From a phage, in assembly GCA_011944185.1 (NCBI GenBank), contig GCA_011944185.1_3921.2: DNA of 27,455 nucleotides; one strand, 5' to 3'. The position numbers and the translations under genes are program-made. Positions 17,868 through 25,500 of the stretch are shown here, one piece after another (position 1 is the stretch's first letter; every line of letters starts with the position of its first letter). Below the pieces are notes generated by a model. That model had not been told where the DNA came from. It saw nothing but the letters and a program-made list of their open reading frames with translations, and did not search any database.

Positions 17868-18138
17868 AGAAAAGTGGGAGATTTTACCATTAGTCAGTGA
17901 AGGTGGTAATGGTTGTGAAATGTACATGATACGTGGTCATGTTCCAGAGCCAATTGCACTTGAGATGGTAAACAACTTTACAGATGGTTCTTACAAAGAC
18001 TTAGGCGAACCAACTGTCAAGCAACAATGGGTTAAACCTGTACCAGACAGCACAGGTAACTGTAGTGTACTTTATCACGTTGTAGACCCTGCAAAATGCA
18101 AATCTGCAATGGCAGTAACAAACATAACTTTTGATTGA
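17860..18138 (+). CDS. hypothetical protein
   Basis: 92-aa ORF overlapping the upstream stop. No motif recognised. Confidence 0.45.
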   Translation: MAKEKWEILPLVSEGGNGCEMYMIRGHVPEPIALEMVNNFTDGSYKDLGEPTVKQQWVKPVPDSTGNCSVLYHVVDPAKCKSAMAVTNITFD

Positions 18139-18149
18139 GAGAGAAAACT

Positions 18150-19031
18150 ATGAAAACATCTATACGTGTTACAGTTCATTCACCAACTAAAGGAACTCAT
18201 GAAGAAGAGTTTAACATCATCCAATTTCCTTCTGGTGAGATTGGTGGACACTTTTCGCCAGAGTTTGTTGATTTCACTGCTTATGCAGCATCATCCATCA
18301 ACAATGTGATTATGATTGTAAAAGGTTATGATAAGGACACATTGTTTGCTGTGGCACTTGCTAAAGAAGCAATTGATGATTTAATTCCTCACGATTATGC
18401 TTTAAAGACTGTCATCTTTTACTACTTACCAAATGCACGATATGACCGTCACATGTTTAAAGGCGACGCAGCAGCTTTAAAGGTTTTTGCTAAACAGATT
18501 AATGCAATGGGGTTTGGCGCAGTCTGTGCAGTTGACCCTCACAGCTATGTACCAGATAACCTGTTTAACTGCTTCCAGAGTATTCCTCAAAAGGAAATTG
18601 CAGTCCACTATGCAAATGACCCACTGATTGATTACTTAGTAGCCCCAGATGCAGGTGCTGCTAAGAAGATTGCAGAGACTGCTAAAGAGGTGGATAAACC
18701 ATACATCACAATGTCTAAGGTGCGTAACCTTAAGACTGGTGAAATTACTGGTATGCGAATCCTTGATGATGTTGATTTGACAGATAAAACCGTTATGATT
18801 CTGGATGATATCTGTGATGGTGGTCGAACCTTCATAGAAGCAGCGAAACATCTTCGTGAAGCAGGTGCAAAACGTGTGGAACTTTATGTAACACATGGTA
18901 TCTTCTCTAAAGATGTTGAAAACCTTCTTGACAATGGTATCGACCATATTTACACTACAAACTCTTTAGGCGAAGCTAAAGACCGTGGCTTAACACATTA
19001 TGGTCAAGTTACTGTAGCGAACCTTGATTAG
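18150..19031 (+). CDS. ribose-phosphate pyrophosphokinase (Prs)-family protein; PRPP synthetase or ADPR-pyrophosphate synthetase-like
   Basis: C-terminal half aligns with E. coli Prs as I recall it: VAPDAGAAKKIAE...VMILDDICDGGRTFIEAAKHLREAGAKRVELYVTHGIFS vs VSPDIGGVVRARA...[38 protein letters not shown]; DPHS resembles the Prs DLHA motif. The PRTase loop reads DGGRT where I recall DTGGT in Prs. The ORF track starts at a TTG at 18135; I prefer the ATG at 18150 after GAGAGAG. Confidence 0.75.
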   Translation: MKTSIRVTVHSPTKGTHEEEFNIIQFPSGEIGGHFSPEFVDFTAYAASSINNVIMIVKGYDKDTLFAVALAKEAIDDLIPHDYALKTVIFYYLPNARYDRHMFKGDAAALKVFAKQINAMGFGAVCAVDPHSYVPDNLFNCFQSIPQKEIAVHYANDPLIDYLVAPDAGAAKKIAETAKEVDKPYITMSKVRNLKTGEITGMRILDDVDLTDKTVMILDDICDGGRTFIEAAKHLREAGAKRVELYVTHGIFSKDVENLLDNGIDHIYTTNSLGEAKDRGLTHYGQVTVANLD

Positions 19032-19545: not shown

Positions 19546-21327
19546 ATGAGTAAGTCACTTTACGCAGTACCAGCAGGTCTTAATGCAGATGCTTACAAGG
19601 CATCACATATATATCAGTATCCAGATGCTACGCAATATCTTATGTTAAACCTGACACCACGTAGTGATAAATGGTTTAACAGCCCTTTAGCAATTGACGG
19701 TGTAGTGGCTTTTGGTATTCAACGTTTTGTTAAAGATTACTTGATAGACCACTGGAACGCCACCTTCTTTGAACGTGACAAAAAAGAAGCAATTGACGAA
19801 ATCTTAGAAGTCATGAACGGTGTTCTGGGTAAAGATGCTATCGGTAGAGAACATTGGGAAGCACTTCACGACTTAGGCTATCTACCAGTTGAAGTATACG
19901 CTGTAGAAGAAGGCACAGTTGTTCCTATGCGTGTACCAATGATTGTCTTCCAGAACACTGTTTCAGGTTTCCATTGGGTAGCTGGGTATCTGGAAGATGC
20001 TTTCTCTGCTGAGATTTGGAAGGCTTGTACCATTGCAACTATTGCATTGCACTACAAACGTATCTGTAAGAAGTGGTCTGACCTTACTTGTGACAACGAC
20101 TTGCATTTGCCTTATCAGTGCCATGACTTTGCTATGCGTGGTATGTCCGGCTTTACTGATGACGCATTTAACGCTGTAGGCCACTTAACCAGCTTTAAAG
20201 GAACTGATAGCTTCCCTGCTGTATATACAGCTAAACGCATCTATGGACAGTCCTACCCAATCTCTGATATTGGTAGCTCTGTACCAGCCACTGAACACTC
20301 TGTGATGTGTGCAAACATTGCTTGGGAAGGTGGTAATGAGTTGGTTGAAGAAGAAAGACGCTTTAAAGGTGAGTTGCAAACCTTCCGTCGCTTCTTAACA
20401 GAAACTTATCCAACTGGTATTGCAAGTGTTGTTTCAGACACTTATAACTTCTGGAGAACTGTGTCAGAAATCTTACCAGCACTCCGTAAAGAAATTATGG
20501 AACGTGATGGCAAACTGGTAATTCGTCCTGACTCTGGAGACCCTGTACACATTGTCACAGGTTATAAAGCAATCCACTTAGAGTGTGCTAAAAAGGCTTA
20601 TTATGAGCACCTAAGCAATCTGGAAGCCAGTGACACAATGCTGAATGCTGTTCTGAACATGAAGCTTGAAAACATCAGCTATGGTATTGCTGGATGGCTA
20701 CTGTCAGAAGGCTACGAAATGGTTGTTGACAGAGAAGACTTTGAAGTTGCTGATACAGTGATGTTGAAGAACGCTTATATGGTTGGTTCTGCAAACGTTG
20801 TAACACGCCCTGTAGCAGAGATTGATGGAGCTATTAAGACCTTGTATAACATCTTTGGAGGAACTATTAACTCTAAAGGTTTTAAGGTACTGGATGAGCA
20901 CATTGGCCTTATCTATGGCGACTCTATCACGTTGGAACGTGCAAACGAAATCCTGAAGCGTCTGTATGAAATGGGGTTTGCAAGCTCTAACGTGGTGTTT
21001 GGTGTAGGCTCTTACACTTACCAGTACATGACTCGTGACACCTTTGCATTTGCTGTCAAAGCAACTCTTGCAAGCATTGGTGGCAAAGAGATTATGCTTG
21101 CAAAAGACCCTAAAACAGATAGTGGTGTTAAGAAATCTGCCTTTGGTGGTGTAGCACCTATGTGGGATGGTGAGAATTTGAAAGCTGTAGATGGCTATGG
21201 ATTCCAGAGCTTTGCAGATGCACTTGAACATCCAGCTTGTGCTTTACGTTTAGTCTTTAGCGACTCTGAGCAGTACGGTTACACAACTCTTGGTGATATT
21301 CGAAATAATATTGACAATCAGCTTTAA
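19546..21327 (+). CDS. nicotinamide phosphoribosyltransferase (Nampt/NadV)-family protein; possibly nicotinamide ADPR-transferase-like
   Basis: N-terminal LNADAYKASHIYQYPD fits the (D)xYKxxH signature of the Nampt/NAPRTase family; 593 aa; AGAGAGAG RBS; followed by a terminator. Catalytic residues not individually verified. Confidence 0.7.
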   Translation: MSKSLYAVPAGLNADAYKASHIYQYPDATQYLMLNLTPRSDKWFNSPLAIDGVVAFGIQRFVKDYLIDHWNATFFERDKKEAIDEILEVMNGVLGKDAIGREHWEALHDLGYLPVEVYAVEEGTVVPMRVPMIVFQNTVSGFHWVAGYLEDAFSAEIWKACTIATIALHYKRICKKWSDLTCDNDLHLPYQCHDFAMRGMSGFTDDAFNAVGHLTSFKGTDSFPAVYTAKRIYGQSYPISDIGSSVPATEHSVMCANIAWEGGNELVEEERRFKGELQTFRRFLTETYPTGIASVVSDTYNFWRTVSEILPALRKEIMERDGKLVIRPDSGDPVHIVTGYKAIHLECAKKAYYEHLSNLEASDTMLNAVLNMKLENISYGIAGWLLSEGYEMVVDREDFEVADTVMLKNAYMVGSANVVTRPVAEIDGAIKTLYNIFGGTINSKGFKVLDEHIGLIYGDSITLERANEILKRLYEMGFASSNVVFGVGSYTYQYMTRDTFAFAVKATLASIGGKEIMLAKDPKTDSGVKKSAFGGVAPMWDGENLKAVDGYGFQSFADALEHPACALRLVFSDSEQYGYTTLGDIRNNIDNQL

Positions 21328-21341
21328 AAGTATATGATAAG

Positions 21342-21364
21342 AGGCTCCTACGGGAGCCTTTTTA
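21342..21364 (+). terminator. Rho-independent terminator (TACG loop)
   Basis: Perfect AGGCTCC-TACG-GGAGCCT hairpin followed by TTTT. Confidence 0.65.
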
Positions 21365-21380: not shown

Positions 21381-21716
21381 ATGAAAATCAAAGAGATGAA
21401 CATCAACATTGTCTTAGAAGAACGTTGGGAGAATATTAAGAAACCTGAAGATGGTAAAAAGTTCCTTAACAAAATTTTAGTAGCAGCTAAAGAAGAACTG
21501 ACTGGCAAGATTGCAGCAGCAGTCACAATAAAAGTTTGTGTAAAAGGTCTTCCAGACAACCACCAATTTGCGCTTGACGAGTTTAAAAAAAGCTTCTACA
21601 ATCCAAACAAACAGATGCTTGAAAGTAACTTTGCAGTATCTACAAGTATCGTCCATGACAGAAGCTTTATCCTTTACAAAAATATGAGAGGTGAGTCATG
21701 CAAGCATATTGGATAG
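21381..21716 (+). CDS. hypothetical protein
   Basis: 111-aa ORF; GGAGAAG RBS. No motif recognised. Confidence 0.5.
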   Translation: MKIKEMNINIVLEERWENIKKPEDGKKFLNKILVAAKEELTGKIAAAVTIKVCVKGLPDNHQFALDEFKKSFYNPNKQMLESNFAVSTSIVHDRSFILYKNMRGESCKHIG

Positions 21717-21874
21717 AAATTTTACTGTCACTTGGCAGCGTAGCAGTATTTGTTTACCTTCTTTGCAAGTACTATGCAGAGTACAAGAAGTGTGATTACT
21801 GCAATGGGGAAGGGTATACAAGAGCAGGTTGTTGCCCTATGTGTGGTGGTTCTGGTAAAATGTTTAATAAGTAA
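21698..21874 (+). CDS. small membrane-anchored protein with tandem DnaJ-type CxxCxGxG zinc-finger motifs
   Basis: 58-aa ORF absent from the supplied track: hydrophobic N-terminus (WIEILLSLGSVAVFVYLL) then CDYCNGEG...CPMCGGSG, two CxxCxGxG repeats. AGGTGA 5 nt before the ATG; overlaps the upstream gene end. Confidence 0.45.
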   Translation: MQAYWIEILLSLGSVAVFVYLLCKYYAEYKKCDYCNGEGYTRAGCCPMCGGSGKMFNK

Positions 21875-21902: not shown

Positions 21903-24269
21903 ATGCGCATGGTAAATGACCACGCAGAAGTGATTAAGAGTTCAACTTCTTTAGAGACGTCTCAAGCACAGATTACAATGACACCTGAGATGTTCAGCCT
22001 TTTGAGTTCTGGTGTGTATACCTTTAAAGAAAGGGCAGTGATTCGTGAACTGTCATGTAACGCAGTAGATGCTCAGAAAGAAGCTGGAAAAGAGAACATT
22101 CCATTCCATGTGCATTTACCTACTCGTTTTGAGCCTTACTTCGAAGTTCGTGATTTTGGAACTGGATTGACTCATGATAAAGTTATGAGTTTGTACCTAA
22201 ACTATGGAGCTTCTACGAAGAATGACTCTAATGACTACATTGGTGCAATGGGTATCGGCTCAAAGTCACCATTTGCAATTGCTCAGTCATTCACAGTATC
22301 TAGCTATGTTGACGGTGTTGTTAATAAGTACTCTGTTTATCTTGAGAATGGTATCCCTCAAGTAACTAAGCTGACAACTAACCCAACAAAAGAACCTAAT
22401 GGTTTAGCTGTACGTGTGGCAGTTGCTGACCACCGTATCTCAAAGTTCTTTGAAGAAGCTGGGAATGTGTACTCATACTTCACTGTAAAACCAGAAAGTA
22501 ATATTGAGTACGACGATATATTAGCAGATATGAACGTCATTGCCCGTGAAGAAGGTGTTTATGATGCCATGATTCATAAGCAAAGCTGGCGTTCTGGCGC
22601 TAACAGAACAGAGTTTAATGTGGTGATGGGTAACATTGCCTACCCTGTTAACATGGAAGCATTACTTGGAGATGATTTCTTCAAAGTATTGCCAGAATTT
22701 TTCCGTAGGAGCGTAGACCTTGTAAACATCTACATGCCTATTGGTTCAGTTGCTATTGCAGCTTCTCGTGAAGCATTGCAGATGAATGACACGACAAAAA
22801 ATGTTATCATTGAGGCTACTAAAAAGATAACTGAAGCCATTACAAAGGATGTTATCAAGAAAGTTAATAGCCAACCTACACTCATGGATGCTGCACAGGC
22901 TTATGCTGAGTTACGTTTGAACTCACGAGAGATGTTTAATGCTGTGTGTCCAAAGCTAGAGTGGGGAGGCGTTAAGCTTGATTCTCTGGAAGAAGAATTA
23001 CTAAACATTCGTCGTGGGATTATCTACGCAGAAGACGGCTCAGTCATTTATGAACGTGACGGTAAAGGTAATATTAAGGTTGATAGGAACGGAAACAACA
23101 TCCCTAAAGTAGATTTTCTTTATGACCCAGTTGCTTATGTCAAGTTCAACTCTTTAGAGAGTAAGATTCGTGCAACAGCACTTTCCTACACTCAAGAGGC
23201 AAGTATGTTCAATATCTTTGGTGCAATGCGTAAAAGCCAAATTGAACAGTTTTTGTTCGTGATTAATGACCGTCGCAATAAAAATGGTACTGAGAAGACT
23301 GTAGGACGAAATCAAATCTTGCGTGGTGCATGTCGAGACTACGCTAACGAGTCAGGCCTGTTCCACAGATACAATGGCATTGTGTTTGTATTCTCGACTG
23401 AAAAAGAGTTAGACGACCTAATCAACCTACACAAACTTGATAAAAGCTTGTTAAAGATTGTGAAGATGTCTGATAAGGAACATCACTATCAGCGTAAAGA
23501 AGCTGTAAGAGGTGTTGTAAAACTCTGGAAAGCTGTTCCAGCAGAAGGTGTAGCTTCCTATAAAGAGGTTTCAGAGGACTTTGATACAATTGAAGAACCT
23601 CAGCTTTACATTAAGGCAGTTGGTGACACAGTTGATGGTAGATGTTTTTGCTCATCTCCAGAAGATGTAGCTAAGTCAGTTGCTAATGTTACAGGTAAGA
23701 CAGTCTATGTTTTCCGAAAAGCAAATTGGAAAAAGATACCAGAAGACTGGATTGAAGTAGATGAGCAACTCTTGAACGATAGCTTAACTGATGTTCACTG
23801 GATTAATCATAACAGGTATATGACACGCATCTACATGAATGGTGTTCTTGACCTTACAAGCAGTTGGATTATTGCCAGAAACTTTACATTCAATAACAGG
23901 AAGATTTCTCGTGGCTATTGCTATTCACGAGATACTAGCAAAACTATCTTCCTAGAAGGTAATGAAGAGGCTGTAGAGGCTATGTTCGGTAAAATCCAAT
24001 ACGTTGCTGCACCATTTGCATACACTTATACTATTAGTAGATTGCAAACTTTGAAAGAATGCCTTGACAATGACACAAAACTGTACAAAAAGATTAAAAA
24101 AGCAGGTGACCGCATGGTTATCAAGCTGACAAACTATCTTTCAAAAAGAAAACAAGAAAACTTCTTGCTTTCACACTTAGATTGGAATAAAGTATCACCT
24201 ATCGAAGTGAGTAAGTTTTTAGGCTTTAATGTGAAATGTGTTCCAGAAGGTACAACAATTTACGATTAA
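21903..24269 (+). CDS. rIIA: rIIA-like protein (GHKL/HATPase_c-type ATPase domain at N-terminus)
   Basis: GHKL motifs: IRELSCNAVDA (N box), VRDFGTGL (DxGxG), IGAMGIGSKSPFAIA (G box). Segments FSLLSSGVYTFKERAVIRELSCNAVDAQ, NDYIGAMGIGSKSPF and PIGSVAIAASREALQMNDTTKNVI match my recollection of T4 rIIA; 788 aa. Confidence 0.75.
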   Translation: MRMVNDHAEVIKSSTSLETSQAQITMTPEMFSLLSSGVYTFKERAVIRELSCNAVDAQKEAGKENIPFHVHLPTRFEPYFEVRDFGTGLTHDKVMSLYLNYGASTKNDSNDYIGAMGIGSKSPFAIAQSFTVSSYVDGVVNKYSVYLENGIPQVTKLTTNPTKEPNGLAVRVAVADHRISKFFEEAGNVYSYFTVKPESNIEYDDILADMNVIAREEGVYDAMIHKQSWRSGANRTEFNVVMGNIAYPVNMEALLGDDFFKVLPEFFRRSVDLVNIYMPIGSVAIAASREALQMNDTTKNVIIEATKKITEAITKDVIKKVNSQPTLMDAAQAYAELRLNSREMFNAVCPKLEWGGVKLDSLEEELLNIRRGIIYAEDGSVIYERDGKGNIKVDRNGNNIPKVDFLYDPVAYVKFNSLESKIRATALSYTQEASMFNIFGAMRKSQIEQFLFVINDRRNKNGTEKTVGRNQILRGACRDYANESGLFHRYNGIVFVFSTEKELDDLINLHKLDKSLLKIVKMSDKEHHYQRKEAVRGVVKLWKAVPAEGVASYKEVSEDFDTIEEPQLYIKAVGDTVDGRCFCSSPEDVAKSVANVTGKTVYVFRKANWKKIPEDWIEVDEQLLNDSLTDVHWINHNRYMTRIYMNGVLDLTSSWIIARNFTFNNRKISRGYCYSRDTSKTIFLEGNEEAVEAMFGKIQYVAAPFAYTYTISRLQTLKECLDNDTKLYKKIKKAGDRMVIKLTNYLSKRKQENFLLSHLDWNKVSPIEVSKFLGFNVKCVPEGTTIYD

Positions 24270-24274
24270 AGTGT

Positions 24275-24304
24275 TTGACAAGGGGCTTTGAAGCCCCTTA
24301 GAAT
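24275..24304 (+). promoter_or_regulatory. sigma70-like promoter P3 (TTGACA-N18-TAGAAT) with a perfect hairpin in the spacer
   Basis: TTGACA at 24275-24280 and TAGAAT at 24299-24304; the whole 18-nt spacer is the palindrome AGGGGCT-TTGA-AGCCCCT (24281-24298). Same GTTTGACAA context as P1 and P2. Lies between rIIA and rIIB. Confidence 0.5.
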
Positions 24305-24348
24305 AGCCTCACAAATTGATTGATTAACTAACAAGAGAGAGTAATAAG

Positions 24349-25458
24349 ATGACTACTAAAACTAAAGCACAGATTGACGCAGAAATTTACAAACTGGTTA
24401 AAGAAGGTAAGCTGACCAAAACAGCTATTGCACAGAAATTTAACACTTCAACCCGTTCAGTTGGTCGTGCTGTAGAGCGTCATGAAGCAACCCTAAAAGG
24501 GAATAAAAAGGCAACTTCTGCACCAGCTACGAAGACTTTGAAACAAGTTGCTAAGACTTTTAAAAAGAAAGCTGGCAAACCAGTTGAAAAGGTCGTTAAA
24601 GAGACTGTACAGAAAGCTCCAGTAAATAAACTGCACGAAGCTATGCAGAAAGATGACAAAATTGAGTACATGATTACTGGTGACTCTGTAATTATGACTT
24701 ATGGTTCAGAATCTGAAATTGTTGAGTCTACTCATCCAAACTATCAAGAGATTGTAGTTCATGTTGTGAAAGGTGAGTTCAAGAAAGCATTTGAACTGAT
24801 GAACATCCGTAAGTCTATCGAAAACTTCACTCAGGGTGCTATTACAATCAAAGGTGACAAGCTATTCTACGGTGCTGTTGAGATGCGTTCTACTCTGGTT
24901 GACCGTATTCTCCACATGATGAAGACTGGTGATAAAGGTTTTGAACGACTTGTAATGTTCTTCGAAAAACTGATGGAAAACCCATCTAAAGATTCTGTAG
25001 AACAACTTTGGGGATTTGTATCTCACCTTGATGTTGAAATTGATGAAGAAGGCTACATCATTGGTTGGAAGAAAGTCTCTACTCGTGAAGGCAAGCTGGT
25101 TGACTCTCACACCTACAAAGTGCCTAATGATTTGGGTAACATTGTAGAAATGCCACGTTGGATGGTTGATAATAACCGTAACGTAACTTGCTCTCAAGGT
25201 CTTCATGTTGGTGCTTGGGATTATGTTCGTTGCTTCTCAGGTGATACAATCCTGAAGGTTCGCGTACATCCACGAGATGTTGTATCTGTTCCAACTGATT
25301 ACAACGATATGAAGATGCGTTCCTCTCGTTATGAAGTTGCAGCAATCGTTGATAATCAACGTAAAGTGCTGGAAGCATGGGACGGTAAGACTGAAGCTTT
25401 GCATGTCATCGTTGGCACTGCTGGTGAACTCATCTCTCAACGTAAACGTGAAATCTAA
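24349..25458 (+). CDS. rIIB: rIIB-like protein
   Basis: Segments ITIKGDKLFYGAVEMRSTLVDRILHMM, FFEKLMENPSKDSVEQLW and VRVHPRDVVSVPTDYNDMKMRSSRYEV match my recollection of T4 rIIB (VRIEGGSLFYQNIELRSGLVDRILDSM; VKVHPRDVVSIPIDYNDAKMRTCQYEV); immediately downstream of rIIA; AGAGAGAG RBS. Confidence 0.75.
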   Translation: MTTKTKAQIDAEIYKLVKEGKLTKTAIAQKFNTSTRSVGRAVERHEATLKGNKKATSAPATKTLKQVAKTFKKKAGKPVEKVVKETVQKAPVNKLHEAMQKDDKIEYMITGDSVIMTYGSESEIVESTHPNYQEIVVHVVKGEFKKAFELMNIRKSIENFTQGAITIKGDKLFYGAVEMRSTLVDRILHMMKTGDKGFERLVMFFEKLMENPSKDSVEQLWGFVSHLDVEIDEEGYIIGWKKVSTREGKLVDSHTYKVPNDLGNIVEMPRWMVDNNRNVTCSQGLHVGAWDYVRCFSGDTILKVRVHPRDVVSVPTDYNDMKMRSSRYEVAAIVDNQRKVLEAWDGKTEALHVIVGTAGELISQRKREI

Positions 25459-25474
25459 TAAGTAATTTCTTAAA

Positions 25475-25500
25475 AGGCTGCTTCGGCGGCCTTTTTTATT
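25475..25500 (+). terminator. Rho-independent terminator (TTCG tetraloop)
   Basis: AGGCTGC-TTCG-GCGGCCT hairpin (one U-G wobble) followed by TTTTTT. Confidence 0.6.

Follow-up and report, generated by a model that had tools for sequence, protein, structure and literature searches.

The adjacent rIIA and rIIB genes in the analyzed DNA (the window: 27,455 nt, contig GCA_011944185.1_3921.2) are very likely the canonical rIIA-rIIB counter-defense module of a Felixounavirus. By analogy with studied orthologs, the two proteins are expected to act together and to let the phage replicate in abortive-infection or immune hosts. The rII region is among the most famous loci in genetics. The observation is confirmed but already known, and the window reveals nothing new: the pair is annotated in most of the near-identical genomes listed, the GHKL domain of rIIA has been described (Iyer et al. 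2021), and an anti-defense phenotype is established for close orthologs.

The window belongs to a FelixO1-like coliphage of the genus Felixounavirus (subfamily Ounavirinae), with 97% nucleotide identity to phage Ro111lw. At the DNA level, 276 phage records match. Among the matches listed, most annotated near-identical records label this pair as rIIA/rIIB. The gene order around it is syntenic with Bas63, SUSP1, HY02 and Ro111lw. The two ORFs have the positions and lengths reported in an earlier sequence-only reading (Table 1). rIIA directly precedes rIIB, both genes being on the + strand, with a gap of 79 nt. This order is also found in T4, Bas63 and SUSP1, and in three metagenomic phages that are only distantly related (spacing of 2-17 nt in these three). 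rII occurs in ~6% of sequenced phage records, and the carriers of rIIA (2,924) and rIIB (2,875) are nearly equal in number, with matching genus counts. RB43 has a natural rIIA-rIIB fusion, and the phrog_609 profile shows likewise. A joint function is assigned because adjacency is retained, carrier counts are nearly equal, the fusion exists in RB43 and each gene is required in Bas63 (see below). The fusion also favors a physical complex, which rIIA and rIIB probably form.

Table 1. Features of the rII unit and of the adjacent NARP1 genes (positions in the window).
Feature	Position	Strand	Remarks
Adps (Prs-like), NARP1	18135-19031		Pribosyltran and Pribosyl_synth domains; 78.5% identical to bas63_0079
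Namat (Nampt-like), NARP1	19546-21327		NAPRTase and NAMPT_N domains; 96.6% identical to bas63_0080
Putative sigma-70-like promoter TTGACA-16-TATGAT directly abutting intrinsic terminator	21311..21362	+	upstream boundary of rII unit
orf111	21381-21716	+	phrog_4262 (unknown-function PHROG); 93% identical to bas63_0082
orf58	21698-21874	+	phrog_3931 (unknown-function PHROG); 98% identical to bas63_0083
rIIA CDS	21903..24269	+	788 aa, 89.5 kDa; matches phrog_612, T4 rIIA and Bas63 g84
GHKL (Bergerat-fold) ATP-binding domain, rIIA aa 26-200	21978..22502	+	nearest to HSP90 and MORC branches
GHKL motif I (N-box), E49-L-S-C-N53-A-V-D56	22047..22070	+	E49, N53, D56 invariant in 61 sequences
GHKL motif II (G1 box), D84-F-G86-T-G88	22152..22166	+	D84, G86 invariant; G88 at least 90%
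GHKL motif III (G2 box/ATP lid), G114-A-M-G117-I-G119-S-K121	22242..22265	+	G114, G117, G119, K121 invariant; position confirmed by regex
Second domain, rIIA aa 201-325	22503..22877	+	co-aligns with GHL ATPase transducer/middle domain
Lineage-variable C-terminal region, rIIA aa 326-788	22878..24266	+	predicted fold confident
Putative sigma-70-like promoter TTGACA-18-TAGAAT	24275..24304	+	rIIA-rIIB gap; 11/12 consensus match
rIIB CDS	24349..25458	+	369 aa, pI 9.2; matches phrog_609, T4 rIIB and Bas63 g85
Three-helix HTH domain, rIIB aa 1-50	24349..24498	+	sigma region 4/LuxR/DeoR-like
Disordered Lys/Ala/Thr-rich linker, rIIB aa 51-100	24499..24648	+	from pLDDT and alignment occupancy
Conserved rIIB core, aa 101-335	24649..25353	+	family-specific fold
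rIIB motif C281-S-Q-G284-L-H286	25189..25206	+	Cys, Gly, His invariant; T4 rIIB 'TCSRGLHV'
Predicted intrinsic terminator	25472..25495	+	10-bp stem, tetraloop, T-run; closes rII unit

The resemblance to the T4 proteins, previously noted for several segments, is borne out by PHROG profile matches and by BLASTP against the T4 reference proteins (from NC_000866). For rIIA, aa 1-771 match positions 1-717 of 725 of phrog_612 (E=3.2e-189). T4 rIIA (NP_049616) is homologous in the N-terminal GHKL domain and the second domain (32% identity over aa 23-317, 307 columns, E=4e-37), and the C-terminal 460-470 aa could not be aligned to T4 rIIA by BLASTP. For rIIB, the profile match is to phrog_609 (E=2.6e-89), and the core is homologous to that of T4 rIIB (NP_049889; 43% identity over aa 127-339, E=3e-60). 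Close homologs of rIIB carry PF26926 (Phage_T4_rIIB).

All three GHKL motifs previously noted in rIIA are present. In an alignment of 61 sequences, the lowest members of which have ~22% identity to the window protein, the nucleotide-binding and catalytic motif residues are strictly conserved, the named residues being invariant save G88. Also invariant are G150/P152 and G167 ('PNG'), which are candidate motif IV positions. Motifs I and II can be aligned to bona fide ATPases: when the family profile is compared with TRAP1/HSP90, the N-box aligns with TRAP1 'IRELISNGSDA' and the G1 box with TRAP1 'IQDTGVGM'. rIIA has NCBIfam matches to HSP90 and sacsin, and the Bergerat ATP-binding fold is recognized. 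The Pfam search that had been suggested as a check gave a sub-threshold HATPase_c match for the window protein (13.2 bits versus a gathering cutoff of 26.4). For HATPase_c_3 (cutoff 25), a 63%-identical homolog (P0007) passes with 26.7 bits, and T4 rIIA is below the cutoff with 22.1 bits. Precomputed PF13589 matches exist for many rIIA homologs. Despite the threshold miss, rIIA is kept in the GHKL superfamily because the structural and motif tests outweigh it.

rIIA is thus predicted to bind ATP and to belong to the GHL class, with a GHKL Bergerat fold and a transducer-like second domain, in which Y247, G281, R289 and E290 ('SRE' motif) are invariant. This would be the architecture of HSP90, MORC, MutL and TopoVI-B. 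In comparison with GHL-class ATPases (HSP90/TRAP1, MORC2/3, SMCHD1, MutL, TopoVI-B, GyrB/ParE), the C-terminal region of rIIA is unique. rIIA lacks their chaperone C-terminal dimerization domain, CW or S5-CC modules and Toprim or endonuclease partner, and no relatives of aa 326-788 were detectable outside the rIIA family. This region of ~460 aa after the ATPase module is fast-evolving. SUSP1 rIIA has 63% identity to the window protein over its whole length; the value is 87% in the GHKL domain and falls to 53% in the C-terminal region. The profile of TmtA, from the Tiamat anti-phage system (PADLOC PDLC03972), matches rIIA aa 20-134 (E=1.4e-8). TmtA is a host defense protein of ~1,300 aa without an rIIB partner, and only the ATP-binding core is common to both. 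Phage and host therefore both use this type of ATPase in their conflict.

rIIB consists of a sigma-4-like HTH and a basic disordered linker, followed by a family-specific core in which a Cys...His motif is invariant. The HTH is present from T4 to Felixounavirus, and ~1/3 of the homologs lack it while retaining the core. In the linker, pLDDT is <50 at residues 53-73 and 79-89, alignment occupancy is 50%, and the length varies, with large insertions in some homologs. The linker is longer in the window than in T4 (proteins of 369 aa versus 312 aa). All family invariants of a 62-sequence alignment (F204, G235, V273, C281, G284, H286 and P308) are found in the window protein. Iyer et al. 2021 classed rIIB as a transcription-factor-like protein.

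The rII unit is bounded by two terminators. The upstream one lies 12 nt past the Namat stop codon, the downstream one 14 nt past that of rIIB. orf111 and orf58 are apparently cotranscribed with rIIA and rIIB, since they are located between the same two terminators. orf58 has an N-terminal transmembrane helix (19-residue Kyte-Doolittle mean 2.11) and a C-terminal CxxC...CxxC. It is unrelated to the small ORF upstream of T4 rIIA (rIIA.1, PF24210). The predicted promoter in the rIIA-rIIB gap is one of five exact TTGACA-N15-19-TANNAT sites (0.79 expected). Its spacer contains a GC-rich hairpin (AAGGGGCT/AGCCCCTT), and both the hexamers and the stem are kept in Bas63, HY02 and Ro111lw, and also in SUSP1, which is more divergent.

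A broader anti-defense neighborhood, with an NAD-pathway module and a dam gene, had also been suggested. The NAD-pathway part stands. The Adps and Namat pair is orthologous to Bas63 g79/g80, the NARP1 operon for NAD+ reconstitution, for which an anti-defense function has been validated (bioRxiv 10.1101/2024.02.11.579819). The dam part is corrected here, as there is no dam gene anywhere in the window. The [DNS]PP[YFWH] motif is absent from all six-frame ORFs of 80 aa or more in the whole window, no ORF of at least 90 aa has a methyltransferase Pfam match, and the annotations of the syntenic regions in Ro111lw, Bas63 and SUSP1 list no methyltransferase.

Bas63 (Escherichia phage JohannRWettstein, MZ501086) belongs to the same genus. 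It shares the gene order Adps, Namat, small ORFs, rIIA, rIIB, SLT-like protein and PNK-like protein. It lacks the HNH homing-endonuclease ORF found in the window between the two NARP1 genes and has an extra small ORF (bas63_0081) that the window lacks. SUSP1 (Suspvirus, Ounavirinae, KT454805) has identical synteny, including the HNH ORF (92% identical). Amino-acid identities to the window proteins are 97.2% and 82.3% for Bas63 g84/g85 (bas63_0084/bas63_0085), and 80% for SUSP1 rIIB. In the C-terminal tail of rIIB (aa 336-369), identity to Bas63 drops to 35%.

Escape from host exclusion, attributed to the rII proteins in the sequence-only reading, is supported by such orthologs. Bas63 requires both g84 and g85 to plate on QatABCD hosts; single deletions reduce plating by 1e4-1e5 and can be complemented (PMC11482910). 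Knock-downs of rII make SUSP1, N4, T4, MM02 and EdH4 sensitive to lambda RexAB, and SUSP1 depends on both genes individually for plating on RexAB hosts (PMC11879866). In T4, transposon insertions in rII become depleted during growth on RexAB hosts (bioRxiv 10.1101/2025.11.20.689424). The Bas63 study (PMC11482910) is a preprint, and its model is membrane depolarization by QatB; the '>80% homology' to T4 given there is contradicted by the identity of 32-36% measured here.

We tentatively propose a possible mechanism in which a clamping rIIA and an adaptor rIIB mask or remodel an infection signal or sensor common to unrelated defenses. Upon ATP binding, rIIA would dimerize or clamp, as other GHL ATPases do. 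rIIB would be the adaptor, its HTH and basic linker contacting nucleic acid or a nucleoprotein complex; this link is based on its pI and on the transcription-factor-like classification (Iyer et al. 2021). In T6, RIIB by itself is toxic and is sufficient to trigger a CARD-gasdermin system (PMC10312443), so that rIIB has an activity of its own which the signal-masking model leaves unexplained. The pair would act on a signal or sensor on which unrelated systems rely, rather than inhibit each defense effector one by one. Co-evolution with host targets may involve the surfaces formed by the variable C-terminus of rIIA and by the tail of rIIB.

T4 rII proteins are placed at the inner membrane in the classical literature and fractionate with membranes (1970s biochemistry). 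A membrane-level mechanism accounts for this placement no less well than signal masking does. rIIA and rIIB might be peripheral on the inner membrane and oppose the loss of potential caused by defense systems (e.g., by the RexB channel), the rIIA ATPase powering HSP90-like remodeling of membranes or channels. We consider this rather doubtful. The HSP90 chaperone family is the nearest sequence kin of the rIIA ATPase, and orf58, which lies between the same terminators as rIIA and rIIB and encodes a small Zn-ribbon protein tethered to the membrane, could be an anchor. RexAB depolarizes the membrane, and the rII knock-downs sensitized five phage genera to it (PMC11879866). However, QatABCD, which is countered by the closely related Bas63 pair, is regarded today not as a membrane effector but as a QueC-like protein-modification system that includes a nuclease, and a 2026 QatBC structure paper does not describe membrane depolarization by QatB. 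The only Qat counters that PhageMaP reported among the Bas63 genes are g84 and g85; the orf58 counterpart is not one of them (PMC11482910). The HTH of rIIB, conserved as described above, is of a DNA-binding type. The proteins had been called membrane-associated, a property that the sequence does not reveal. A hydrophobicity scan (maximum 19-residue Kyte-Doolittle mean per protein) found no transmembrane or strongly hydrophobic segment in rIIA (1.29) or rIIB (0.69), compared with the value given above for orf58. Both are thus predicted not to be integral membrane proteins. Peripheral membrane association is possible.

rIIB could also be a transcription factor with rIIA as its ATP-dependent regulator. 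Phage or host transcription would be reprogrammed, and the defense phenotypes would be indirect. This is improbable. Since the HTH is missing from ~1/3 of the rIIB homologs, which have the core, the essential conserved part is not the DNA-binding domain, and the dispensability of rII on hosts without defense systems argues against a general transcriptional role. It is highly improbable that rIIA and rIIB are true lysis-inhibition genes that time holin-mediated lysis: the evidence for this consists solely of 'RIIA/RIIB lysis inhibitor' annotation strings (GenBank, RefSeq, PHROGs), but this label goes back historically to the 'rapid lysis' plaques of T4; rII in the window is an early-type unit beside nucleotide-metabolism and NARP1 genes; the spanins are a few genes downstream of rIIB, behind its terminator; the sole annotated lysin in the relative SUSP1 is far off on the other strand; and the functional data report a requirement on defense-carrying hosts only.

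The value of the analysis is modest. It gives a cleaner anatomical map from which experiments can be designed on a Felixounavirus that is genetically tractable. The map comprises a predicted two-domain GHL-type rIIA ATPase nearest to HSP90/MORC, a short list of family-invariant residues in both proteins, the HTH/linker/core layout of rIIB, a fusion that points to a complex, and a unit with a terminator at either end.

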